Shown in pieces: positions 1 to 63,500 of a DNA stretch of 64,000 nt. Source of the DNA: Cyanidioschyzon merolae (lineage: Eukaryota). Position 1 is the stretch's first letter. Each line of letters opens with the position of its first letter. Both the position numbers and the translations under genes were made by a program. The stretch is taken from assembly GCA_000091205.1 (NCBI GenBank), contig AP006495.2. One strand, 5' to 3'. The notes under the pieces were generated by a model. That model ran no database searches. It was not told where the DNA came from and saw only the letters and a program-made list of their open reading frames with translations.

Positions 1-2557
1 ATGGACTCCTCACAACGGCTTCGACACACGCCGCAGCATCCGGGTGCATGCTCATGACCTGATGATGGGCAATCGGCCCTGAATCGTCACCCACAAAGTA
101 GATATGCTCCAGGCGGTCTAGTGTGGTCGCACCGTCAGCCCATGCCGCCGCCAGAAGCGACGACAGTGAAGCGTAGCGAGCTATCGGCCGCGATACGATT
201 TCCTCCGTCTCCGTCGCGGGATCATCCATTACGACCAACTCAAACCTGACGGGTTGCTTGGGCGCTCGCTCTACTCGGTTCAAGTCCGAGGCGGTGACCA
301 GAGGCGGGCTCCGTTTGGTCCCGCTCCATACGTGGGAACGGACAGCTTGTACAGTGGTTCCGGTGGCGAGCCGCTCCAGCGAGTATACCAGCTCGCACGG
401 CGTCCAGGTTCGCGAGCGATGTAAACCGGCCCCGAGACCCGTCGACGCACAGCCGCTGTGCTCAAAAGCAGAGCGTGCCAGTCCGAAAAATGGAAAGTCC
501 AAGTCATGCAGATGAAGATCGTACTTGGGGATCAGGAACGGATCCTGCGTCTGCGTGATACCGCGCAGATAGTGTTCGACCATCCGACGACGTGTCCCCG
601 CTGGATAGACCAAAGCTTGGGTTCCATAGATCCGCGAGTGTTCTAAGAACGCGTACGGCCATCCCAGCCGCGGGTCATGCCATTTCTCCGGTACATAGAG
701 CTGCGCAGCGTAGCTCGTATTCGGCGGGAAGGAGTATCTCCGGTTCGGCGCCTGTGCCAAACTGTCCAGATCGTGCTCAATGGAGCGCAGCGTGTGAAGC
801 ATATTCACCCAGGCGTCGTCGGCAGCTTTGACATCATCCTCTAGTAGGACCAGGTCGCGCTCTGGTGATGCAAAAAGATCAAGTCCTCGTAGAGCAGCAT
901 AGTAGTTCACGGTACCGATTGCGTGCCGGCTTTGCTGAATACGCTCGAGCGGCATTGCCCCCGACGTTTCAAGATGATCCCGAAACGCCTCATCCCATCG
1001 ATGAATGTTGATTCTCGTGGGATTGTGGCGGAACACGCGCAGATACTCGTCATCGGGCGGGTAGTTGCTTGCAAACAAGTGCAGTTTGTCGATGAACTCG
1101 TGTTCCGGAGAGAGGCTCGGCATCCCCGCTGCATCAACAGATAAAGCAGCAGCAGAAGCAGCAGCAGCAGTCGGCATGTACACCGGATCGCGCCAAAAGC
1201 TCAGGATCACGGAAGCCACGGTGGCGTACACGCCTCCACAGGTGACGTTCCGCAGTGGGCACGGAAGCAGTTTCCGTTGCGTCTCGGTATCGAGACAGAG
1301 TTCATGGCTCAGCGCTGTGTAGATGCGTTGCCCGTCCCGGTTCCAGACTTGGTGCTGACCATCCGGATCATCATGCTTCGACTCGCACGGCAGCAGGTCT
1401 ACCGTGCGGTCCGCGAGGCTCGTCACCGAGAGACAGAGCGTTCGGTTCTTTCGTTCAACCTTGGTTTCTACATAGTGTCCGGCAAGCGTCTGATGCTGGG
1501 ATGAAACATTTGATGCCGGTGCTGGGTACCGAATCGTTCGGTCTTTCGGATCCACTGGGGGCATGCGCTCCGGCGGAAAGCGAGTTCGCTGGAGATCCTC
1601 AGGCGTGTACCGTGACAGCGGTACATAGCGCCGCACGGTTACCATGCCAATGGTGGATCGATGACGCTCCCGAAACGCCGGTGAGATAGCGGCCAATACA
1701 TCCAGTCGGGGGGCGTCCAGTGCCAGCAACAGCGCTTTCGTGGAGCGCCCAGTTCTCGACTCGAGCCGCACCGTCTGCGCTCCAAGTGGCCAAGGCAACA
1801 CTTCAGGAACCTCCTTGAACGCACTGGGTAAATTTGCGGATGCGACATTGTTCGACCGCTTGTTGCGCAGGCTCTTGGCTCGCAGGCGATCCAGTCGAAG
1901 GAGCGGTGCTTGCAGTTCCAGACGGATCTGACCGGCAGAGAGGGTTCCTTTTTCCCGTTCATCCCAAACGATGCAGTTCTCCAGGCCTAGCACAAGTTGC
2001 CACGTTTTGGTATCGACGCCAAGGCACTCACCGGATCCGACACGCCGCCAGATGCTTTCCTGTGGGCTCGAGCGCAACGAGTGACGCCACAGCTCCAACG
2101 ACTCGTACTCAGAACTCGTTTCAGCAAGTTCCTCGCTTGTGGTCACTTTTTCCTCGTCAGCAGGACAGACTCGCACGTAAACTGGTTGCGGAGCTGCGTT
2201 CGCTGTAGAAGTGTCCGTTTTCCGTACAGCGAAACAGCCTTGAAAGAGCTCCTGCACCTGCCCACGCTTGTCGTGAAAACGAGCAATCACGACTCCCAAG
2301 GAGCCGGTTGTTGGAAGCACCTCTATAAGGTGACCCGTATGACCCGGCCGCACAAGGTTATTCAGTTTTCCCACGACCCGTAGCTTTTCGGGTTCAGTGG
2401 AACCGGGAGAAGCCCGCAGCGGACCTCGCCCAAGCCACCTGCTCAGTAGCAGAACCAGCACCAGTAAAAACCCGCCAGCAAGTAACCGCTTGCGAATTAT
2501 GCCGCGCTTTTTGCGGCACTGACTAAAGCAGCGACGGGAATGAGAACGCAGGTGCAT
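1..2557 (-). CDS. Hypothetical type-II (signal-anchor) membrane protein, at least 852 aa, 3' end beyond window start; possibly a Golgi-type glycosyltransferase-like protein (family not assignable)
   Basis: I translated the minus strand codon by codon from 2557 to 1. ATG at 2557-2555 follows an in-frame TAG, and there are no stops through to position 1. N-terminus is 'MHLRSHSRRCFSQCRKKRGIIRKRLLAGGFLLVLVLLLSRWLG', a basic stretch followed by a hydrophobic signal anchor. The rest reads as protein-like sequence, e.g. 'IHRWDEAFRDHLETSG', 'LLEDDVKAADDAW', 'PEKWHDPRLGWPYAFLEHSRIYG'. The ORF is absent from the supplied ORF track because it has no stop inside the window. Confidence 0.55.
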   Translation of the reverse strand, partial: MHLRSHSRRCFSQCRKKRGIIRKRLLAGGFLLVLVLLLSRWLGRGPLRASPGSTEPEKLRVVGKLNNLVRPGHTGHLIEVLPTTGSLGVVIARFHDKRGQVQELFQGCFAVRKTDTSTANAAPQPVYVRVCPADEEKVTTSEELAETSSEYESLELWRHSLRSSPQESIWRRVGSGECLGVDTKTWQLVLGLENCIVWDEREKGTLSAGQIRLELQAPLLRLDRLRAKSLRNKRSNNVASANLPSAFKEVPEVLPWPLGAQTVRLESRTGRSTKALLLALDAPRLDVLAAISPAFRERHRSTIGMVTVRRYVPLSRYTPEDLQRTRFPPERMPPVDPKDRTIRYPAPASNVSSQHQTLAGHYVETKVERKNRTLCLSVTSLADRTVDLLPCESKHDDPDGQHQVWNRDGQRIYTALSHELCLDTETQRKLLPCPLRNVTCGGVYATVASVILSFWRDPVYMPTAAAASAAALSVDAAGMPSLSPEHEFIDKLHLFASNYPPDDEYLRVFRHNPTRINIHRWDEAFRDHLETSGAMPLERIQQSRHAIGTVNYYAALRGLDLFASPERDLVLLEDDVKAADDAWVNMLHTLRSIEHDLDSLAQAPNRRYSFPPNTSYAAQLYVPEKWHDPRLGWPYAFLEHSRIYGTQALVYPAGTRRRMVEHYLRGITQTQDPFLIPKYDLHLHDLDFPFFGLARSAFEHSGCASTGLGAGLHRSRTWTPCELVYSLERLATGTTVQAVRSHVWSGTKRSPPLVTASDLNRVERAPKQPVRFELVVMDDPATETEEIVSRPIARYASLSSLLAAAWADGATTLDRLEHIYFVGDDSGPIAHHQVMSMHPDAAACVEAVVRSP

Positions 2558-2713
2558 GTTCTGGTGCTAGAGCAAACCCCAACAGGCATTCTAGGCAAGG
2601 CACAAACAATACATCCAGTTCTGGGAGAGTCCTGCGCTGGCGTGGCGCTACGATCGCCGCCATCAGGACGCGTGTCCAAGCTTTTAAATTTCTCTTCTAC
2701 AGCATGTTCCATC
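2558..2713. promoter_or_regulatory. Putative bidirectional promoter / shared 5' intergenic region between the divergent membrane-protein gene and CAP
   Basis: There are only about 157 bp between the two divergent start codons (2557 on minus, 2714 on plus). Confidence 0.3.
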
Positions 2714-4036
2714 ATGACATCCAGTAGCCTCCAGGAGTGGCTTCAGGAACCCTCTAAACGCCTTCAGATCGAAGCAGACACAAACTGCTGCAAGAGCAAA
2801 CCCGAAGTTGCGCTCTTAAACGATGCTGTTGTGAGTACGTCTGCTCTATTGGAGGCTGTAGGCCGGGGCGGCACCACAGGAAGCGAAACGGTCGGAGCTA
2901 CCAGGGCCAAACTGGAGAAGCGTGTTTACTTCCAGATCGCGCAGTGTGCGAGTCTTGGTCCAGACTCGCCCGTAGCGGTCGTTGCGAAAGCACTGCGTTT
3001 TTACGAGGTCGAGGAGTTGGATGCGCTCTTTCAGCGGTGCCTGCAAGAGCTTGCTCGGTTACCGCTCCGCGAAGGGCGCACTCCCGCATACGTGGCGTGC
3101 GTGCGTGACTGGTTAGAGGCGTTACAGTCGTACGCACAACGTTATCGTGAGGGTGCTTGCTCACGACTAGTACCCGAAGACGTATCGACGCCAAACACGC
3201 AACCGGAAACGGCAACTGAGCAGTCGGGGGAGACGCTGTCGTTTGCGGCACCGACGCCGCCACCGACACCAGCGGCTGATGAAGGACAAAGTTCCAGACT
3301 CTCGCTTGAGAAAATGGCGCCTGGTACAGTTTCGACGACAGCTGCGAACAGGGAAGCGCTTCTTTCCCAGATAGAAGCAGCGGGGGACGCGATCACCACC
3401 GTGTTGCGACCGACGCGTGCAGTACCGGCAAAAGCCCCCGCCGCCACGGAACCTGTTCGCTGTGAGCCAGCTCCGCCCGTCACGACGGTACCCACTCAAC
3501 AGAAGTCACATGAGTCAGGCGAGACACCGCTTCTACTCTTCGAGCGCACCGCAAACCGCTGGCGAATTGAACACTTTCGGGCGCTCTCTGCGGAGCCGCT
3601 GCAGGTGTCGATCTGTCACCCCCGCGAAACCGTCTACGTTTACCGATGCGAAAAACAGAGTATCAAAATTAGAAACAAATGCAATACGCTTATGCTGGAC
3701 GCTTGTCGCGACGTGGTGGTGCTTTTCGAGAGTGTTGTTTCAGCTGTCGAGGTTGTCCGATGCAGCAAGTGCAGACTGCACTTTACCGGCTGCGTACCGT
3801 CCATCTCGATCGACAACTGCGATAGCATCGTATTGTACGGAATGCCGGGCCAAGTCATCACATGCTGCGCAACGGCAGTGACGATCGTCGAGCCAGACGG
3901 TGACACCGAGCGGGAGACGCCGATCCCCCAGCAGTTCATCACCCGTCGGCAGAGTGAGGAGGCGGCTGCGGCTGCTCGTACGGAAACGGCGCACCGGTGG
4001 GTCACGGAGCCGCTCAAACATTCGGGCGCTGAATGA
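2714..4036 (+). CDS. CAP: Adenylyl cyclase-associated protein (CAP/Srv2)
   Basis: The N-terminal helical-domain region 'ALRFYEVEELDALFQRCLQELARL' matches CAP. A central Pro-rich tract 'APTPPPTPAADEG' is present. The C-terminal CARP beta-helix region matches CAP: 'LLLFERTANRWRIEHFRA', 'ETVYVYRCEKQSIKIRNKCNTLMLDACRDVVVLFESVVSAVEVVRCSKCRLHFTGCVPSISIDNC', 'ETPIPQQFITR' (compare human CAP1 'LELEGKKWRVENQEN', '[29 protein letters not shown]', 'EFPVPEQFKT'). I chose Met-59 of the 2540 ORF as the start, because the earlier part would overlap the divergent gene's start. Confidence 0.85.
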   Translation: MTSSSLQEWLQEPSKRLQIEADTNCCKSKPEVALLNDAVVSTSALLEAVGRGGTTGSETVGATRAKLEKRVYFQIAQCASLGPDSPVAVVAKALRFYEVEELDALFQRCLQELARLPLREGRTPAYVACVRDWLEALQSYAQRYREGACSRLVPEDVSTPNTQPETATEQSGETLSFAAPTPPPTPAADEGQSSRLSLEKMAPGTVSTTAANREALLSQIEAAGDAITTVLRPTRAVPAKAPAATEPVRCEPAPPVTTVPTQQKSHESGETPLLLFERTANRWRIEHFRALSAEPLQVSICHPRETVYVYRCEKQSIKIRNKCNTLMLDACRDVVVLFESVVSAVEVVRCSKCRLHFTGCVPSISIDNCDSIVLYGMPGQVITCCATAVTIVEPDGDTERETPIPQQFITRRQSEEAAAAARTETAHRWVTEPLKHSGAE

Positions 4037-7635: not shown

Positions 7636-8742
<1,107 letters not shown>

Positions 8743-9318
8743 CTACGCACTCGCCCCGCGGCGAATGCCGTCCAATCGATGTACGATTTTTTTTCCTGAC
8801 AAAACGTTTACGTGGGCCAGCGTTCTCCAATTGTGCGCATATTTCTTTTCTTTCTTTTTTTGTGCTCTTTTTTCAGTGCGCAGTGAAGTATCCATCAAAC
8901 GCCCTACCTCCATGTTACATTACCTATACTTTTTCTCGGATATTCTGGTCGTTTCATACGTCCAATCGTGTGCGCCTAGTACCTGCCCAAATCATCCGTC
9001 TTTGCGCTTGAACCGCTGGGGCAGATAGTTCATAGAACTAGAACGGTTTTTCTACAGCACAGAGGGCGTCGGCTCGAGGCGTGCTTCACCCGACGTAGAA
9101 TCGGGTCTCGTCGTCAGTTTGTGCTCAGACAGTCTGCGGATGCAGGCTTGCCTTCGCTGCACGACACGCTGGAGAAACTTGGCTGTTCGGATATATCCTG
9201 GGAGCCGCCTCTCTCCTTCGTGACCATGTGTGGGATGCGTTGTTGTCGGTTGGCAACCCGGGTGTAAATCGGCGTACGATGCTGCGGTTGGAAGTACAGT
9301 AGCGGCGGTGAACGCGCC

Positions 9319-11512
9319 TTAGACAAAACGTCTCCAACCGACGTGCAGACGCCTCCACGTCTTTCTCGGCCGGCCACCGAATACTGCTTCCAACTTTTTC
9401 TCACATAATACCACCTTGAGAGGTTGTTCAACAAAATTCCCTCTTGTGAAGTCTGGAGGCCTTGTCTCCAGCACCGCACATCTCCTTGTATTGATAGCGG
9501 CGTTAGAGTCTCTGTTCACAAACTCCATACATTTCTTTCCATCACTGGTTGTACTTACTAACGCAAGCAATCCACGAACTTTCGCTCCCCTTTCCACTTG
9601 CTGTTCCGTCAGCGCACCGTACTTTTTTCTATCCTCAGGGCTCCGCTGACGCTTTTCCATATCGACCCTCTGGAGTGTATAGGACGTTCGGGACTCATCT
9701 ACAGGTATCGTAACGAAACGCCGTGCACACTTCTTGTACGTTCTTGTCGTTGGAGCTGGTGTACACCCTTTTCGGGTCTTCCAGCGTCCTGCTCCATATG
9801 CTACTGCGGGCCTCTAACTCTCATTCTCCTTGAGGGTGCTCAATTGATTGAAAAAGTTGGCGAATGCACGCTGCTTACTACAGTATAGATTCATTCGCAG
9901 ACGAGCCCAGCGGGGCTTTGTATACTCCTCCCACAGCGCCTCCCAATGAGCAACACGAACTTTCACGAATTTCCGAAAAGCTTGAAAGTCTGCTCCGCGG
10001 CTCGTCACCTCGCCCAAAGCTTCTGGGTGATCCTTCATTCCTGCGTTCCACGTGTCAATTTTCTTCCTTGCATTCATGATTCCCGATTCTCAATAGTACC
10101 TTGCTCTCGGGAATCTCAACAGAAGCATATCTTTCTGAAGCAAGTTACCGTCAGTACCATCTTCCGCACGTTTGGGTTTTGCGATAGTTATGATATTTGT
10201 GTTTCAGGGTCCGCGCCAACGATAAAGTCGTTATCCTGCACTTTCTGCAACGCAGGTTCCGCCTCCTCCTTCTCTTCATCCTTCGTCACGTCAACGACAA
10301 GGTCGTTATCCTGCACTTTCTGCGTCGCAGGATCCTCCTCCTTCTCATCTTCATCCTTCGTCACGGGCGATGCCAAAGGCGAACCAGTACGATCTTTCTT
10401 CAACCGCCGATAGTGTACATACACGGCTACTCCATCGGTTTCGATCAACCCAGTGAATACCTTTTTTCTGCTCACTCTCAGACGTTTGGAATCGAAGATA
10501 TTCTTCCAGTGGGTCTCCCGGTTTTCGCCAGTGAAGTCCTCCCTGCTGACATTGACCTCCGGACTGATCTCCCTCATGATGCCGAAAAGGACTCTGGAGT
10601 CGATACTCACAAAAAATGTGAATTGATGGTGCACATTGGAACCACGTTGAAGCGCTTCCCCATTAGGAAAGCCTTCCGTCTCTCCCATTCTTCATTTTTT
10701 TCCTCACTCAGCTTCATCTCCGGTTTGACTTCGAGCTTTCGGTCCAGAAACACGAAACAGCGCAGGACGAGGCGATTGTATCTTTCCTTATCTTTTTTCA
10801 ACTCTGTGATCTTGTCTGTTGGATTCGCCAACCCCAGTACCGCACGGTGCTCTCGTATAGCCGCACGGATCGCAGCAGCTTTATTCGTGCTCCTGCGTAA
10901 CGCCTTCTTGTCGACAAATTCGACCTCATCTTCATGCTTGCGATCGTTCGTGATGCCATTGATAATCGCCCATATTCCTTTGCGAGAGATGCCCGGGTAC
11001 AGCGCAAACACGGCGCGTCTCATGAAACGTTCGAGGTTCATTGTCAAATGGTTCTTCAGGTTCGTGATGTACATCATCGCTCCGTGTATGTAAATATTCG
11101 AGTCACCCTTGCATCGAGTACCCTCGAAGCGGAATTCCGTGAGGTTTTCGTGGAGGGTATGCACTAGCACATTTTCGCTCCGCGCTTCCCCTGTACCAAA
11201 GATGAGGTGACAAACAAAGGTCTTCTCGAGGATCTCGTCTGGAATCTCGACTGTTTTGATGTCCGTCACGTCGCGATACATCTCCGTCGCCATATGCATT
11301 AGTCCTGACGACGTCTTTAGAATAGTCTTGGAGTACGAATCGACACGGTTTCTGATGGCGTCTCCCAACTTTTCCTTGTTCGGATCCTTGATATGTTTAA
11401 AAAGAGCGGCTTCCACCACCATCTCGCCGTACTGGCGTCTTTCTTGCGGTCGTTGACGTCGGGCACCCTGCATTTGCTTCTTGGTCGTCTCCTGGTCCTC
11501 TTTGCTCGGCAC
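9319..11512 (-). pseudogene. TnpB/Fanzor-like (RuvC-nuclease, OMEGA-family) gene, near full-length (~730 codons) but disrupted by at least 2 frameshifts and 1 in-frame TAG; copy A of a dispersed repeat family
   Basis: Four consecutive same-strand ORFs cover the region: 10607..11512 (301 aa, K/R-rich N-terminus), 10188..10688 (166 aa, 82-nt overlap in another frame, contains '[13 protein letters not shown]'), 9814..10077 (87 aa), and, after TAG at 9814-9816, an open frame 9319..9813. The 87-aa segment contains 'KKIDTWNAGM', which I align to the TnpB RuvC-II region (ISDra2 'IEDLNVKGM' as I recall it). It also contains 'HWEALWEEYTKPRWA', which I align to the conserved 'SWSEF..LEYKAEWYG' block. 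The downstream part has 'FVTIPVDESRTS' (compare 'VVKIDRFFPSSQTC', with the Zn-finger cysteines mostly lost) and 'KKCMEFVNRDSNAAINTRRC' (the RuvC-III 'DRDxNAAxNI' signature) about 45 aa from the C-terminus. Domain order matches TnpB/Fanzor. Confidence 0.5.
10222..10370. repeat. Tandem repeat, ~75 bp x2, inside the TnpB-like copy A (encodes acidic 25-aa repeats on the minus strand)
   Basis: 'gataaagtcgttatcctgcactttctgcaacgcagg...' is followed by 'gacaaggtcgttatcctgcactttctgcgtcgcagg...'. Confidence 0.8.
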
Positions 11513-12688
11513 TGTTTTTTATCCGCCAGCCGGCGACACTGTGCGTCCGTGGTCCTCCACTTGCATTTCTATGCTTTTATATTTTTGAAAACGGACCCGC
11601 TTCGAACACTTCTGGTATATACACCGAAAAATCACTTGAATATACTTGCTTCAGGCTTGAAATACTATTGGACAGAGATTTATACTTTGCTACGACTTCG
11701 ACGCAAATACATCTTGCCCGATACAGCAACAGTTCAACTAGTGGTCAGGATCGTGTTTCCCTTCAACGTCGAGATGCATGCCGTACCCCATGCATGCTAG
11801 ATATGGAGGTACACGTATCGACAACGCTATAGGAGAAAAAGAAAAGAACGAACCGCTAGCTAGCAACCAGATGACAATTTCTTCCCCCCTATGCTAAACC
11901 TAAAAGGCGGCAAAAAGTTTTCCGTATTTTCGAAAGCTTACCTTCTAGGCAGAAGGTCACGCGTGCCAGCCGGATCTGCTTCGCTAGCGCGTCATGCTCT
12001 TCCCAGTGGTGGGTGCTGAGGCGCGACTTGGGCAACTCGCCCGCAACGCGGTTTACTCTGCCACTCGGAGCGAGTATGCTGTGTCTGGCCGTCGCACTGG
12101 GAGCAATAGTGCCCTAATATATCGCTTCGCGCTTTAATGGGAAGTATGTCTGTCTGCGCGGTTTGCAGGCTCCCGGAATGATAATTTATCCTGATTCCGC
12201 CTCGGATGAACGGTGCCTCGAGGTGGCGCCCCCAGTGGTATAGCAAAGCCTTTCTGTCTCTATGATGCATCTGCACCAGCGGTATACGCGTTACGGCTGG
12301 TGCTCTCTACAGGTTCGACGCACAATGGATTGTAGAAAACGATCAGTACGCCCGAGAAGGAGTCCAGGTTATGGAACCTGGAAGTAAGGGGATCGATGGA
12401 TGCTCCACCGCGCGCTTATACCAGGCGCACAGTCGGGGAACACAGCCCAGAGTCACGGAGCTGTCAATTAGAACAAGGCATCGAACGCGGCCGGCGGCGG
12501 TTGGGCGCGCTCGAAATGCATTTGCATCAACTAGCATGAATGGGGAACGTACGTTTGCCCGTGAAAATCTCGTTACTGGGATAGGATGCTGGTGATCTCG
12601 TAGAGTGCCTTGGAATCCACAAGTGAAATGCTGCGTTATTCACAAAAAAACTATTGTCGTTCTGTTTAGTTTGAGTCTGTGAGCTGGA

Positions 12689-14047
12689 ATGGACGCCCAA
12701 AAGGTGACCGCGTCGGCGCCGTACGCCTCTCGGCTTGATCCGCGCACAGCAGGCGTCTCTTTTCCGGAACAAGGCGATGTACAGAGCCCTGCAGAGAACG
12801 AGGGCTCCGCGGTATGCCCACCGCGCCAGACCTCGCTCGGTACGAAGAGCCTGGGAGCGAATATCTTGTTTGGCGGCTTGGCCGGTGTAACTGGTACCAC
12901 GATAATTTTTCCGCTGTACACACTGAAGACCCACTTGATGACTGATACGGGCTCGCGCGAGTGCAGAGGATCATCGGAGTCTGCGGCTGTTTATAACACA
13001 GCGAGCAAAGCAGAGCCCGTTAGGGGTAACGCGGTCTCAACCGGGACCGCGAATCCAACCAGCAGTACAGGACCCGCCCTGGCTACCGAAGCGGCCAAGC
13101 ATACATCAACGTTAGCCGTTAAGGATACGGCTTGTACAGATAGCCATGCTAAGTTACCAACAGTGGAAGCTGCTGCCCCGGCCAGATCATCCAAAGTCGC
13201 ATCGAACGGGTCCAGAGGCCCAGCTGCCGCTTCGCAAAGCACGCTCGCGTCGACTCCGCGGACGAATGCCTTGAAAGCTGCCTCGCTTTTGAAGCGACGA
13301 CCGCGGCTGGTCGAAACGCTCCAGCAGATTCTTCGCTCTCAGGGAGTACGCGGCCTCTACCGTGGCCTGACGCCGGTACTCATTGGGGTCGCGCCTGAGA
13401 AGGCGATCAAACTTGCCGCGAATGATTTTTTCGTGAGCGAGTTTAAGGAGCGGTCACCGAATCCGCATGGACCCCTATCTGTGAAGCAAGGCATGCTGGC
13501 CGGTGCAGGTGCCGGTCTGTGTCAAGTGATAGCGACCAATCCCATGGAAGTGTTGATGATTACGATGCAGACTCGTGCGGCGCATGGCCATCCGCAACAC
13601 AGCGTCACGGATACGATTCGTATGCTGGGTTTGCGCGGTCTCTACCGTGGGGTCAGCGCCACACTCACAAGAGATATCCCTTTTAGTATGGTCTTTTTCG
13701 GAATGAATACTAGTTTGAAGGAGCGACTTTCACTGCATTACCAAGGGGGTCTGCCGATGCGGATTGTTTTCGGCGTAGGGATCCTGTCAGGTGTGACGGC
13801 AGCTGCGCTCAGCACGCCATTTGATGTTGTGAAAACTCGGATACAGAGCGGCGTTCGGGACAGACATGGTAGATCGTATCATTCGGTAGTGAACACGCTC
13901 GTACGGGTGGTTCGAGAGGAGGGTTTTCGGGCTCTCTGGAGTGGCGCTGTTCCGCGCGTCATGATTGTTGGCCCTTTGTTTGGGATTACGCTACTTTTTT
14001 ATGAACTTCAGCAGAGATTGGCACAGTCGGCACATCAGCGAACTTGA
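12689..14047 (+). CDS. Mitochondrial carrier family (SLC25) protein with ~140-aa low-complexity insertion in the first repeat
   Basis: Three Mito_carr repeats are recognisable: 'LFGGLAGVTGTTIIFPLYTLKTHLM', 'GVRGLYRGLTPVLIGVAPEKAIKLAANDFF', 'GMLAGAGAGLCQVIATNPMEVLMITMQ', 'GLRGLYRGVSATLTRDIPFSMVFFGMN', 'GVGILSGVTAAALSTPFDVVKTRIQ', 'GFRALWSGAVPRVMIVGPLFGITLLFYE'. Confidence 0.85.
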   Translation: MDAQKVTASAPYASRLDPRTAGVSFPEQGDVQSPAENEGSAVCPPRQTSLGTKSLGANILFGGLAGVTGTTIIFPLYTLKTHLMTDTGSRECRGSSESAAVYNTASKAEPVRGNAVSTGTANPTSSTGPALATEAAKHTSTLAVKDTACTDSHAKLPTVEAAAPARSSKVASNGSRGPAAASQSTLASTPRTNALKAASLLKRRPRLVETLQQILRSQGVRGLYRGLTPVLIGVAPEKAIKLAANDFFVSEFKERSPNPHGPLSVKQGMLAGAGAGLCQVIATNPMEVLMITMQTRAAHGHPQHSVTDTIRMLGLRGLYRGVSATLTRDIPFSMVFFGMNTSLKERLSLHYQGGLPMRIVFGVGILSGVTAAALSTPFDVVKTRIQSGVRDRHGRSYHSVVNTLVRVVREEGFRALWSGAVPRVMIVGPLFGITLLFYELQQRLAQSAHQRT

Positions 14048-21747: not shown

Positions 21748-21999
21748 AGGGCCGAGACAATCCCACGAGATTCCTGAGTTAGGGCGTGCTCTCTGGTCCA
21801 GAGACCAATGTTGAACTTGCAGAGACGTTCCCGGAACTGCAACAATACCTGCGTTCTACGAAGCGAAAACGCTTCACGGCCACGGGATCAATGAATACCC
21901 TACGTGCAGATGCCTCCCAGTCGCTTCCGACCGGCCACCTGTTATCGGTTTCAGCTGGTCGTCATGCAACTCGACCCTGAGAGGCTGCTCCACAAAGTT

Positions 22000-22450
22000 G
22001 GATCACGTCAACTCCTCTGGCCTCGTCCTCAACACAATACATAGTCTGACATTGATGTCGGCGTTGACGTCTCGGTTCACGAACTGCATGCGTTTATTGC
22101 CGCTGGCGGAACGCATCAATGCAGGGATTCCTCGAACTCGCGCCCTCTGTGCCACTAAAGTCTCTTCATCGTCCCGTCGGGCTAACATTGCTTCTCGCCT
22201 GTCTCCGCTCTAGTTTTTCTTCTTCTTCGCCGTCAAATGCTCTTCGTCGCTCGATGGTCGGCAGAAAGAGAATTTTCTAGTTCTTTTTTCTCGGTAATCG
22301 GCGACACCTGGCTTCCAGGAACCTCGACTTTTATCCCTAGACCTTTTCCATCATCATTTCATTTCTGCATATGAACGAACTTGGGATCCATCTGCGATCA
22401 ACCGCGAAAAAGCATGTAACAAGACGATCCTGGGAGTGAAATACAAATGA
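22000..22450 (-). mobile_element. TnpB/Fanzor-like repeat family, copy B (short 3'-terminal fragment)
   Basis: 'RREAMLARRDDEETLVAQRARVRGIPALMRSASGNKRMQFVNRDVNADINVRLCIVLRTRPEELT' aligns with copy A 'RQRSPEDRKKYGALTEQQVERGAKVRGLLALVSTTSDGKKCMEFVNRDSNAAINTRRCAVLETRPPDFT'. An in-frame TAG lies just upstream. It sits in the divergent intergenic region between DPH2 and the 2OG-oxygenase gene. The upstream extent is approximate. Confidence 0.45.
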
Positions 22451-28451: not shown

Positions 28452-29830
28452 ATTCTTTATGGAAGTGTGCGCACGGAAGACTGTATCCCTCCTTCAGGTC
28501 AGTCATCATATTGTACGGTGATGCTTGAGGAGCCCTGAAAGACATCGATAGATGCGCGCTGCAGGAAAAGCTGGCATTGTCGATGACTGGGCAATGGTAG
28601 ACAGCGGCCCGTTGATCACCTTACGGAAAGCAAAAGCGACGATAGAAAGCACAACGGCTGTCCCTGTTTCTCAACAGCTTGTTTATGTGGTCGTGAATAC
28701 ACCGGGATACAGTGACAAAAAAGTCCCAGGTTTTGCATGGCCATCTTGCCCCGAAACAGCAACCAAAGAGTTCCCGGAATCTCACTATCCATGTAATGGA
28801 GAGGGAACTCGGTTTGTTTTCCCAGTCAATGAGGCTTGCTTCGGACGAAATGATCGAAGCGTTCATGGGTATTCGAGGTGAAGCGAGCCTGTTGTATGTA
28901 CGATCGAACTCGTAGAGAATGAGAACATCACCATCTGTTCTTGCTGTCGTAGACTGATTCGGCGGCCTCAGTTTCGCTTGTATACATGGCTCGAAGAACA
29001 GAACCCACTTCATCGAATCATTGAAGACCTGTCCCTGACGTCTGGCGACGTCCCTCTACCGGACGACATGGTACTCTACCATTCTCCTGACGTTCGACCT
29101 TCCTCCGATTCTGCCGGGACGTAGCTGCTTTTGATTCCTACGTACTCTCCGTGCTTCAACTCCATCGCAGGAGTAGTTTCTATTGTGAAACGTGTGATGA
29201 TCGCTCCACTGGGCAAATCGATGAAGCATTCAGCACACTGTGACATATCGGCGGCATATCTCGCCTTCTTCCGAAAGTCCTTCACGCTCCGGGGCGGTCG
29301 CCGCGTAGCGGCATAAACAAGTGCGTTCATTTGAAGAAATGAAAAATCCAGGGAAAAGGTATGAACATGGGCGTCGAAGATCCCGGCGAGCCGTCATCAC
29401 CGGATTCGACAACATGAAAACGAAAACATCCTCTTCTGGCGGCCCATCGAGCGAAGGAATGCAGGTGACGAAGATGAAGATGAAAAAAGGGAGATACGCG
29501 TGTAAAGTCGCTTGCCCAACGGGACGACGACGAGACTCTTGCGGCACAGAAGGCACAAGTTCTGGCAATCCTTGCATTGGTTAGTTCACCCAGATGAAAT
29601 AAACGCGTGGATTTCGTGTGCAGAGACTTCAATGCCGCCATTCATATTAGACGATGTGTGGTGCTGAAGACACGACTCGCAGAGCGGACGCGATCCAATA
29701 TTGTGGAGCAGCTTGTCAGGCTCGAAACGCACGAGGAGAAGTTGCAGCCGATAGCAATCGACAGGTCGGCAAAGGCTGCACGGCGTCTTTCCGCCTGTAT
29801 TGATTTACCGTGTGGTTGCGAAACGTCTTT
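28400..29830 (+). mobile_element. TnpB/Fanzor-like repeat family, copy C (~1.4 kb, 5'-truncated, degenerate)
   Basis: DNA-level homology with copy D runs over about 1.4 kb. It starts at 'acgatgcaatgtaccgtatagaac' (copy D 'acgatgtaatgtgttttatagacc') and continues through 'gaggagccctgaaagacatcgatagatgcgcgctgcag', 'ccagtcaatgaggcttgcttcgg...gggtattcgaggtgaagcgagcctgttgtatgtacgatcgaac' and 'tctattgtgaaacgtgtgatgatcgctccactgggc'. It ends with '(M)DFVCRDFNAAIHIRRCVVLKTRLAERTRSNIVEQLV', a RuvC-III-like motif. Upstream, 'YACKVACPTGRRRDSCG' is in a shifted frame. Confidence 0.5.
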
Positions 29831-31443
29831 GCTCCGTTGAGCATGTATTGACGCGTGTGATAAGAGGAGAGATAATGGAAGCGTCGAATCTCCAGTATGT
29901 GGATGACGCTCCCTCAAACAACACAGATTGCCAGCCTGGGCACTCGGTGCGCCGCGTTTCCGAGCCTCTTCGGCACCGTTATCAGGAAAAATGGAACAGG
30001 TCTACAGATCTACTGCAGAGGTATACACTAGAATGAGGGTCTCTTCCCGCTGTCATCGATATCTGTCGTTGTGGACATTACCCGTGACTGCTTCTCATGC
30101 CTGGCTCCGAGCTCCGTATTGAAATACACCGATCTCTCATGTGGATCCAGCCGAATGTTTCGCTGTCAAAGGATGTTCATAGCAGCTTTCATGCCTCGAT
30201 TTCATGGCATCGGGCTGTAGTGAATGCATTACATGCATAGGTAGAAGCTCCGGTCTACACATCGCTTGCCATTGTCACCATCATCATCGTTGTATCCAGG
30301 CTGTGTGCGACGTATACAACGGACACACAGGGCTATGGTCTGGTGTTACCGTATACGCAGCACACCATGCGCTGCGACAGCAAACGTACGGCGGAAACAA
30401 GCGTGAGTCTACCGACTTGTTCAAGGAGCTGCAAAAAGGAAACGACTGAAAATTCCCTTCGTATCGTGGTAGCCTAAGTTGCTGGACGCATTGGAGCGCG
30501 CATGGTTGCTTTCCTGATCCTCGAACAAAAACACGTACTACGAGAGTACGAATATCGATACCGCACGATTGCCATGGATGAATTCAGGACGGCACCCGGG
30601 TAACAAGAGCACAAGTTCGCACCGAGGCCGCCAGATGGAAACAGAGTGAACCGGGGCTCCATGCACGACCACTTGCAACGCAAACTGGCTGAACATGATT
30701 TGGGAACCGATCGTCGGTGAAAATCTTGCGTTTGTCGGATTCCAGCACCAAAAGTGTACCCAAAAGCACTTTCTGCTCTCTGGCTCGGACGCCTCGATCA
30801 ATATCCGATAATGTCTGATGCTTCATGATCGTCCAAGGGCTTCGTGTCCAGCGAACTTTGGACTGGATGTTTTTATTACCAGTCTGAGCATTGTGCGGAA
30901 ACGCTGCATATTTCCGATGGAAAACATCAGTATCTCGAAGAGCGTTCATTGGATTCCCGCGCGGTGCACGGCACCTATATGGTACGGTCACTCATCCGGA
31001 ATCGCTAAAGTGGCATACCGAGACTCCCGCCACCATATTCCTGGTGCATTTTTCGAACGACCATCATAATGCATCTTCCGATATTCTTGAGTATACCAGG
31101 CGACGTAAGCTGCTTTACGACGTATCCCGCCGCACTACGGAAATGCTCACCAGCGTCGATGACAACAACTTGTTGCGGATGCGTGAGCAGCGCTCATCCG
31201 TACTCCTGCTGTGCCACACTTCCAGCGCTCTCAAAACAGCGCTTCCGCACAACACCAGGACGCATCTTCACAACACAAGCACGCGCTGTTCATGATGCGA
31301 GCATCCGCATGTTGCCCTTGCCTTGAACGGCACTCGCGGGTATCGCCCTGAACACTGCGTCTCTAGAGCATGTATTCGCGGAACACATCCCCGCGGAAAC
31401 CGCGCTTGCCATCCTACCACAGCACACCCCGTTTATTCGGATT

Positions 31444-62099: not shown

Positions 62100-63500
62100 A
62101 CGAATTCACGATGTAATGTGTTTTATAGACCGTCCATCATTTGCCCAGAGGATATAGATTCCTCACTTAACGGTACAAGGAGGAATGCATTCGTCCTTTA
62201 GTTCAGTCATACCACGGTACTCTGATGGTTGAGGAGCACTGAACGGAAGACGTAGATGTGCTCTGCGTCAAAAAATGGTATTATCGAAGCTTGCCTGCGG
62301 CCAATGATGGAAAATGACTGGCGAATCCCTACCGGCAAGCGAAAGCGACGATGGTAGCCGCCATAGGCGTCCTTGTTTCTCAACAGCTTGTTCTTTTGGT
62401 CCTGAAAGCACGGGCATCCAGTTGCAAAAAAGAGTCCTATTTCAATCACGGCCATCTTCCACGGAAATAGCGGTGACAGCGTTCCTGTAACGTTGCGATC
62501 CGGATGAAACACAGGGACGTAGGTTTTTGTTTCCAGTCGATGAGAATTTCTTCGGGTGCAACGGTCGGAGTGCGTACGGGTATTCGCGGTGAAGCGAGCC
62601 CGTTGTATGTGAGATCGAACGTGAAGAGATCGACGACACCATCTGTTCTCGACGTGGTAAATTCATTTGACGGCCTCAGTTTGGCTCGTAGAGAAGGCTC
62701 ATCGAATAGCAACAACCACTTTGTCGAATCATTGAAGACTTTTGTCTGACGTCTGACGACGTCTTTCTTTTGGACAAAGTGGTATTCCACCATTCTCCTT
62801 GTGTTCGAGCTTTTGCGAATTCTATGTGGATAGAGCTGCTTTTCATACTTCTGTACGCTCCATGGTTGAATTCCGTTTTAGGATTCATTTCTATTGTGAA
62901 ATATAATGATCGCTCCACTGGGCGGATCGCTGATGCTCTCAGCACACGGTGACACACTGGAAGCATATTTCGCCTTTCTTGCGCAAGTGCTTCTCCCTCC
63001 GGGCAGGTTTCCACGCAAGGGCGTAAAGAAGTAGGTTCATTTTAAAAAAATAATGGATGAATTCGAATGCGCATTTCACAGGGTCGAGACTGAGAGAGCG
63101 AGAAGACAGCAGAGCGCACCGGCGATAGAAACGCACGGAGAGATGACAGAGCACCAAATGATGTCGAGGGCGCGAGTTCGGGCAATTCTTACATTGATGA
63201 GTTCCACCAGCGGGAATAAATGCATAGAGTTCGCGAACCCAGACTTCAATGCCGCCATCAACATCAGACAATATCTGGTGTTGAAGACGAGACCCAGGGA
63301 GCTGACGCGATGTAGCTCTGTGGGGCAGCCTCTCAGGGTCGTACTGCGTCCGAATGAAAAAAGAAATCGATATCAGGAGCTCCGTCAAAATAGACCCGAA
63401 CGCGTCTGCGGGAGAGTATTAATTTACCCCAGAAAGAACAGAAACTATGTCGCTCAACAGAACAAGCGCGCGTCGAGTGGAACAGCGTTATCGCAACGCG
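62100..63500 (+). mobile_element. TnpB/Fanzor-like repeat family, copy D (~1.4 kb, 5'-truncated, degenerate)
   Basis: Collinear DNA homology with copy C. Its coding-strand ORF ends 'LMSSTSGNKCIEFANPDFNAAINIRQYLVLKTRPRELTRCSSVGQPLRVVL' (RuvC-III-like). Upstream, 'PCVRAFANSMW' is homologous to copy A 'CSKQRAFANFFNQL'. It lies just downstream of the transporter gene. Confidence 0.5.

Follow-up and report, generated by a model that had tools for sequence, protein, structure and literature searches.

The stretch of DNA analyzed here, which we refer to as the window, comprises 64,000 nt of contig AP006495.2 from the genome assembly of Cyanidioschyzon merolae (GCA_000091205.1). A 340-aa open reading frame (ORF) in it is an exact match of the GAPDH protein of C. 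merolae 10D (BAM81022.1/XP_005537058.1), so that the window represents nuclear DNA of this red alga. GAPDH and a gene for a mitochondrial carrier protein are divergently transcribed around a 4-kb intergenic space, in which the disrupted remnant of a Fanzor1 gene is located, the G+C content of the element being close to that of its surroundings. As argued below, the region is almost certainly a decayed, non-functional insertion of CMe-1A, a Fanzor1 transposon family of C. merolae of about 3.2 kb. The family itself is already known, since it was published for the C. merolae genome in 2013. The features of the locus are listed here by their position in the window, the element first and the flanking sequences last.

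9270-12404, minus strand: nearly full-length copy of CMe-1A, corresponding to consensus positions 66-3169 (BLASTN and global alignment)
9319-11566, minus strand: Fanzor1 pseudogene, what is left of the 734-codon ORF of CMe-1 (ATG at 11564-11566, TAA at 9319-9321)
11567-12404, minus strand: 5' non-coding region of CMe-1A (by consensus alignment; its TE-N2_CMe part according to PMC3627910)
11519-11521, minus strand: premature TAA with an adjacent 6-bp deletion (~11519) that destroys the N-terminal 'KKRK' motif, which resembles a nuclear localization signal (NLS) (consensus alignment)
10611-10616, minus strand: frameshift 1, +2 bp, a T-run of TTTTTT against TTTT in the consensus (consensus alignment)
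10217-10365, minus strand: 75-bp (25-aa) tandem repeat, an acidic linker before RuvC-I (TRF: period 75, 2.0 copies, 87% matches)
~10203-10208, minus strand: frameshift 2, -1 bp, CCCCGGGAAC changed to CCCTGAAAC, directly after the RuvC-I Asp codon
10203-10211, minus strand: putative RuvC-I motif 'GADP(G)', Asp codon GAC at 10209-10211 (D484 of the homolog P0001, invariant)
10090-10092, minus strand: premature TGA, CGA in the consensus
9814-9816, minus strand: premature TAG, CAG in the consensus
9694-9696, minus strand: predicted catalytic Glu codon ('rearranged' RuvC-II) in 'PVDESRTS' (E656 of P0001, invariant)
9676-9681, minus strand: 21-bp deletion (~9678/9679) removing 'THHELGC', the position of the first CxxC in other Fanzor1 proteins
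9508-9510, minus strand: predicted RuvC-III Asp codon in 'FVNRDSNAAINT' (D725 of P0001, nearly invariant; aligns to the NRD motif of Fanzor1)
9270-9318, minus strand: degenerate 3' untranslated end, with the first hairpin GGCG-N7-CGCC kept (9304-9318) and the terminal hairpin lost
8787-9263, minus strand: discrete 477-bp repeat 'X', adjoining the 3' end of the element
7636-8658, minus strand: flanking host gene GAPDH (exact match to BAM81022.1/XP_005537058.1)
12689-14047, plus strand: flanking host gene for a mitochondrial carrier protein of 452 aa

Fanzor proteins were defined by Bao and Jurka in 2013 (Mob DNA 4:12; PMC3627910), who reported for C. merolae one Fanzor1 family, CMe-1A, with about 150 genomic copies roughly 80% identical to their consensus. 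According to the same paper the consensus measures 3169 bp and is without terminal inverted repeats, target-site duplications were left undetermined, and the describers did not classify CMe-1A as to element type; its first 635 bp are the same as a separate repeat, TE-N2_CMe. The CMe-1 protein of 734 aa is a single-exon Fanzor1 that counts among the founding sequences of the 2013 phylogeny, and some copies still encode intact proteins (PMC3627910). We took the consensus sequence from Additional file 2 of that publication and defined family membership as a nucleotide identity of 80% or more along 80% or more of the consensus length. BLASTN aligned consensus positions 66-3135 to 12404-10289 (82.1% identity) and 10290-9294 (85.9%) of the window, and a global alignment gave 84.6% identity over 3104 of the 3169 positions, reaching to about position 9270. 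The copy thus exceeds both thresholds in the expected host, C. merolae. Consensus position 1 possibly falls at 12471, as weak similarity may extend the element that far. On the protein level, the CMe-1 consensus and the frame-repaired translation share 77.9% identity. The window copy therefore resembles CMe-1A in its host genome, in the presence of 5' region, ORF and 3' end and in a divergence that fits the reported ~80%; it differs in that it is dead, that about 65 bp at the start of the consensus cannot be recognized in it and that its 3' terminus is degenerate.

An earlier inspection of the letters alone, the sequence-only reading, had assembled four collinear ORFs on the minus strand (10607-11512, 10188-10688, 9814-10077 and 9319-9660) into a disrupted but nearly complete gene for a TnpB/Fanzor-like RuvC nuclease, belonging to a eukaryotic element of the OMEGA type. 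All four exist, and the comparison with CMe-1A bears out this proposal. A database search with the frame-joined translation yielded an intact homolog of 752 aa, P0001, from a cluster of 22 sequences (71% identity to the frame-repaired translation), in addition to dozens of partial homologs, all of them derived from JGI/ENA metagenomes. P0001 aligns collinearly with the window in three frames (tblastn: aa 1-305 to 11512-10598, aa 298-447 to 10619-10197, aa 485-751 to 10209-9430), and a hidden Markov model (HMM) of the family matches five stop-free pieces with E-values of 7.6e-123, 4e-61, 2.8e-44, 1.9e-44 and 1.4e-13. The collinearity of the four ORFs is far beyond chance. A scan of metagenomes confirmed 331 stretches that encode a relative, and 80 metagenomic loci encoding relatives were compared with the window as the basis for the anatomy of the element described here; nucleotide homology to these relatives spans from about 12400 to about 9280.

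Measured against the consensus, the ORF carries five lesions that break it, namely two frameshifts and three premature stops, and two in-frame deletions. The window copy cannot encode a Fanzor1 protein, because of these frameshifts and stops and of the deletions next to the catalytic Glu and in the NLS-like motif; the 21-bp deletion is located after the Glu codon. The in-frame TAG at 9814-9816 had been recognized from the letters, as had the fact that the frame is broken at least twice. The second frameshift, however, lies at about 10205 and not between 10188 and 10077, and the break that had been placed near 10077 turned out to be the nonsense mutation from CGA to TGA at 10090-10092. Likewise the gene does not start at 11512, its ancestral ATG being found further upstream. 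The 75-bp repeat preceding RuvC-I is in frame and has two units in the window; the consensus contains about one, whereas P0001 and P0007 have additional units. Its 25-aa unit is acidic ('DNDLVVD..K.EE.KEA.PA.Q.VQ'), and its copy number is variable across the family (P0001, P0005, P0007).

For a comparison between strains we used three independently assembled JGI contigs (L082-L084) that encode the same GAPDH protein and are 98.9-99.1% identical to the window locus over 6.5 kb. Differences between strains amount to 12-14 per kb in the ORF remnant, to 0-1 per kb in the GAPDH coding sequence and to 5-23 per kb in flanking non-coding DNA. The ORF remnant drifts neutrally, at the rate of the neighboring non-coding DNA. 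One of the three contigs, L084 (98.9% identical to the 10D locus), originates from the same JGI sample (3300050362) as the near-intact 752-aa P0001 (L001).

The divergent intergenic region consists almost entirely of transposon-derived DNA. The 5' end of the element is 220-285 bp away from the ATG of the carrier gene, and on the other side the repeat X, in the same orientation as GAPDH, terminates 128 bp before the ATG of that gene; the host promoters may thus lie in or against transposon sequence. In many other family copies X is found directly 5' of the Fanzor core, where it replaces the TE-N2-like 5' region. Within X, consensus positions 84-282 are present a second time in inverted orientation (at 8903-9105), which is why an inverted similarity of 231 bp (68% identity) flanks the element, with ~12190-12416 on one side and 8875-9105 on the other. 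We considered this similarity as a true terminal inverted repeat and rejected it, as A-type copies elsewhere are without a downstream X.

These surroundings raise the question of co-option, in which the 5' region and X would provide regulatory sequence for GAPDH and the carrier gene, or the 3' end would provide a guide RNA in trans to intact Fanzor1 copies. The short distances to both start codons speak in favor of such a role, as do the orientation of X, its place directly upstream of the Fanzor ORF in other copies, where a promoter could be expected, and an arrangement conserved in three strains. Yet X and the region of the 3' untranslated region (UTR) differ between strains at 9-21 positions per kb, a rate not below that of the remaining non-coding DNA, and the terminal hairpin that is conserved in intact copies is lost from the window copy. 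We therefore regard co-option as unlikely, and a decayed insertion of CMe-1A as the reading to be preferred.

That the gene is really intact, its breaks being errors of sequencing or assembly or introns and its stops being read through, can practically be dismissed: one frameshift does fall in a homopolymer T-run, a classic site of error, and intact proteins are encoded by some CMe-1A copies, but both frameshifts and all three premature stops recur base for base in 3 of 3 assemblies (L082-L084) from strains about 1% divergent and are thus not sequencing errors, while the +2 and -1 indels come without any intron-like insert, in a family whose published ORF is a single exon, and are thus not introns, and differences accumulate at a non-coding rate across the many lesions. 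The sequence-only reading had left the choice between recent decay on the one hand and sequencing errors or introns on the other; of these only the decay remains. Inactivation of the window copy predates the divergence of the sampled C. merolae strains. A dN/dS ratio (nonsynonymous over synonymous substitution rates) of 0.43 in comparison to the consensus suggests that some of the divergence dates from a time when the lineage still encoded a protein, before this copy died.

Having established the copy as a dead CMe-1A element, we turn to the nature of the protein that it once encoded. Two family profiles were built, A1 from 11 relatives and A2 from 60 diverse relatives, and both significantly match Fanzor1 structures in the half that comprises WED and RuvC. 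In the PDB, profile A1 yielded a single match, 8GKH (SpuFz1 of Spizellomyces punctatus, E = 3.4e-7), and A2 matched only 9CF0 (PpFz1 of Parasitella parasitica, 1e-24), 8GKH (6.9e-20) and 9CER (GtFz1 of Guillardia theta, 1.2e-16). The A2 alignments span more than 350 residues, with the D, E and RD motifs in register, and no TnpB or Cas12f chain was among the PDB matches of the family profiles. Furthermore, 18 of the 60 members of A2 match PF07282, the Cas12f1-like TNB domain (best E 9.6e-11). An exhaustive HMMER search gave 3495 clusters (50% identity) at E ≤ 1e-3; a homolog search with profile A1 returned close relatives only and did not increase diversity.

Several results weigh against the assignment to Fanzor1. 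None of the ORFs, nor the frame-repaired protein, nor the intact homologs gave a significant match to a TnpB-type Pfam family. PF01385 was not matched at all, and PF07282 only at E 0.2-0.4, well under the cut-off of 26.3 bits for both the window copy and P0001, so that the Pfam check that had been proposed with these two families fails even for intact members; the sub-threshold match to PF07282 falls on the RDxNAAIN motif. A phmmer search of the PDB with the frame-repaired protein was without a match, and no single sequence (window copy, P0001 or P0042) is significant alone in Pfam or PDB. The assignment depends on the profiles and on the 2013 paper. AlphaFold2 modeling of P0001 from an 11-sequence alignment resulted in a mean pLDDT (the predicted local distance difference test score) of 38.8, which is unusable. 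The C4 zinc finger of the Fanzor/TnpB signature is missing even in the CMe-1 family consensus. Finally, RNAalifold on the last 400 nt of 42 copies gave -13.7 kcal/mol with a covariation term of -0.79, no convincing structure of the omega-RNA kind.

From these negative results one could argue for an unrelated, lineage-specific family whose 'RDxNAAIN' resembles TnpB and Fanzor by chance, all the more as the precomputed domain on relatives, PF26935, is only a domain of unknown function (DUF8286) and the zinc-finger cysteines are missing. With profiles that match exclusively three Fanzor1 structures and with the motifs in register, with the TNB domain detected in part of the relatives and with CMe-1 a founding member of Fanzor1, such a coincidence is hardly conceivable. 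The possibility that the 'RDxNAAINI' motif belongs to an unrelated family of this lineage, which had been named as grounds for abandoning the Fanzor interpretation, is thereby answered.

In the 60-sequence alignment, numbered by P0001, the residues without variation include D484, E656, R724, N727 and N731, whereas D725 is nearly invariant. The predicted catalytic triad of the window copy consists of the D in 'GADP', the E in 'VDESRTS' and the D in 'NRDSNAA', corresponding to the family motifs 'GADPG', 'VDEFRTS' and 'NRDFNAAIN', and all three codons survive despite the decay. This revises part of the earlier motif assignment. RuvC-I is not the 13-residue segment that had been chosen for it, as the family-invariant Asp is found in 'VGADPG', and 'KKIDTWNAGM' had been mistaken for RuvC-II, the putative catalytic Glu being located in 'VDESRTS'. 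The RuvC-III signature, on the other hand, was called correctly, its aligned counterpart in the Fanzor1 structures being their NRD motif. The Glu motif of the window aligns to 'LDEYKTS' of SpuFz1 and to 'IDEFRTS' of PpFz1. Jiang et al. (2023; PMC10530073) described an alternative Glu, ~45 residues from the canonical RuvC-II position, as essential in Fanzors. By alignment E656 corresponds to this relocated Glu, downstream of a canonical RuvC-II position that we take to fall in 'VVAYGAG'.

The segment 'VTIPVDESRTS' had been read as a zinc-finger region without cysteines. The loss of the cysteines is real and clade-wide, but the segment is more than a zinc finger, as it carries the invariant Glu presumed to be catalytic. 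Between this Glu and RuvC-III a C4 zinc finger (PF07282) is absent from both the window copy and P0001. Throughout the CMe-1 clade (residues ~657-725) 'THHELGC...MEKC' takes the place of the two CxxC pairs; the window copy additionally has 'THHELGC' deleted and a C changed to R. Judged from these alignments, the missing cysteines are a feature of the clade and not only of the decay of this copy. Bao and Jurka classed CMe-1 as Fanzor1 despite the cysteine loss (PMC3627910).

Compared to SpuFz1 (8GKH), PpFz1 (9CF0) and GtFz1 (9CER), the CMe-1 clade shares the 'HFxTIDxxxLYG' block, 'FxGxIxTDG', RuvC-I 'xDPG', a helical insertion, 'DE[FY][RK]TS' with the relocated Glu and the RuvC-III 'NRD', and the family consensus has a basic, NLS-like N-terminal segment as in Fanzor1 nucleases. 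It differs by the lack of the two CxxC pairs and by the acidic linker of 25-aa tandem repeats before RuvC-I; moreover the likeness is seen by profile only, and the clade is known here from sequence. With prokaryotic TnpB (IS200/IS605, IS607) and Cas12f it has in common the logic of the RuvC fold and the RuvC-III signature 'RDxNAAxNI', but there is no significant Pfam or PDB match to them and no TnpA partner, the protein is larger, it is encoded on a eukaryotic nuclear chromosome and it has 'VVAYGAG' in place of the canonical RuvC-II Glu. A prokaryotic TnpB of the IS200/IS605 or IS607 type, acquired by contamination or recent horizontal transfer, has next to no probability: Fanzors do descend from TnpB, and the RuvC-III motif is common to both, yet the element is flanked by eukaryotic nuclear genes on both sides (GAPDH and the carrier), in the same arrangement in three other assemblies, its G+C content is that of the surroundings, and PDB matches are to Fanzor1 alone, with the relocated Glu present.

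How intact members of the family might work can be proposed from homology to SpuFz1, PpFz1 and GtFz1 and from published Fanzor and TnpB biochemistry. An intact single-exon ORF would give rise to a nuclear protein of ~734 aa with a split RuvC domain, in which the Asp of 'GADPG', the relocated Glu of 'VDEFRTS' and the Asp of 'NRDFNAAIN' would act as catalytic residues. The binding partner of this protein would be an omega-RNA that originates by transcription at the element's 3' end and whose guide part, reading into the flank, would direct cleavage of double-stranded DNA; this cleavage may help the element to persist or spread. In 2023, other Fanzor1 proteins were shown to be RNA-guided nucleases. 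Intact CMe-1 proteins are thus probably nuclear, omega-RNA-guided endonucleases of double-stranded DNA.

We read the 3' ends from CMe-1 copies in the metagenomic loci L001-L081 (e.g. L036:5300-5371, L016:5600-5674). Downstream of the stop codon, intact relatives have a small hairpin GGCG-N7-CGCC, then the conserved linker ACTACTGTACAC, a terminal hairpin and finally TT[TC]G. Two sequence variants of the terminal hairpin exist, CGTTCGA-CTT-TCGAACG and GCGTTTTTC-TTTT-GAAAGGCGT, and pairing is possible in both. Intact copies thus have two hairpins in the 3' UTR, and for one variant of the terminal hairpin z is about -4.2; the 3' end of the window copy folds no better than shuffled sequences (z = +1.4). 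Rfam families were not detected across 8500-12700, and nucleotide conservation along the element, as a sign of an overlapping omega-RNA, was not higher at the 3' end of the ORF than in the rest.

At their 5' junctions family copies are preceded by a T-run, and the 3' junctions read TT[TC]G; a non-autonomous Helitron2 would be expected to insert between TTTT and T/C, with no target-site duplication, and to have a partner in the genome that encodes RepHel. Judging from a nested insertion, the T-run appears to be part of the CMe-1A element itself. The 3' ends together with the T-run junctions resemble ends of Helitron2 or of the IS200/IS605 type. With the non-autonomous, Fanzor1-bearing Helitron2 elements of Chlamydomonas (CRe-1/2/3; PMC3627910) the CMe-1A family shares a 3'-terminal hairpin (lost in the window copy), the T-run at the 5' junction and TT[TC]G after the 3' junction, as well as the occurrence of Fanzor 3'-end fragments elsewhere in the window. 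In contrast to Helitron2, we found no convincing asymmetric terminal inverted repeats in CMe-1A, which would be expected at the 5' terminus and just before the 3' hairpin: the test for them gave one match of 10 nt (GACAAAACGT/ACGTTTTGTC) in the consensus only, 4 of 500 shuffles scored as well, and by our reading of the individual copy ends the match is neither maintained copy by copy nor does it covary. It is doubtful that CMe-1A moves as a hairpin-dependent rolling-circle element of the Helitron2 type, that the hairpins serve as right end or as omega-RNA scaffold in a Fanzor1 lineage that lacks the zinc finger and remains active in wild populations of Cyanidioschyzon, or that X is the GAPDH promoter, these being taken together as alternatives of one proposal.

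Elsewhere in the window a second repeat family is present in three copies, two on the plus strand (62176-63346 and 28472-29850) and one on the minus strand (21843-22414). Each carries ~250-300 bp of a diverged Fanzor1 C-terminus (RuvC-III 'NRD/NPD/CRD FNAAI', ~50% aa identity), and the sequence attached to it has no relation to CMe-1A. An upstream segment of 880 bp (71% identity) is common to the copies near 63 and 29 kb, and the copy near 22 kb also retains consensus positions 837-961 and looks like an internal-deletion derivative.

As a single dead copy of a family for which ~150 copies were reported in 2013, the locus matters little in itself, and neither the hot-spring relatives nor the 3' hairpins change this verdict. 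Its practical value is one of annotation: rather than being annotated as genes, the four ORFs should be masked together as one transposon pseudogene. Of possible interest to transposon specialists are the many near-intact relatives in hot-spring metagenomes and their conserved 3' end with two hairpins. For the family, the presumed catalytic motifs of the zinc-finger-less clade can now be placed, at 'GADPG', 'VDEFRTS' and 'NRDFNAAIN', and coding-competent CMe-1 copies may persist in natural populations of Cyanidioschyzon.

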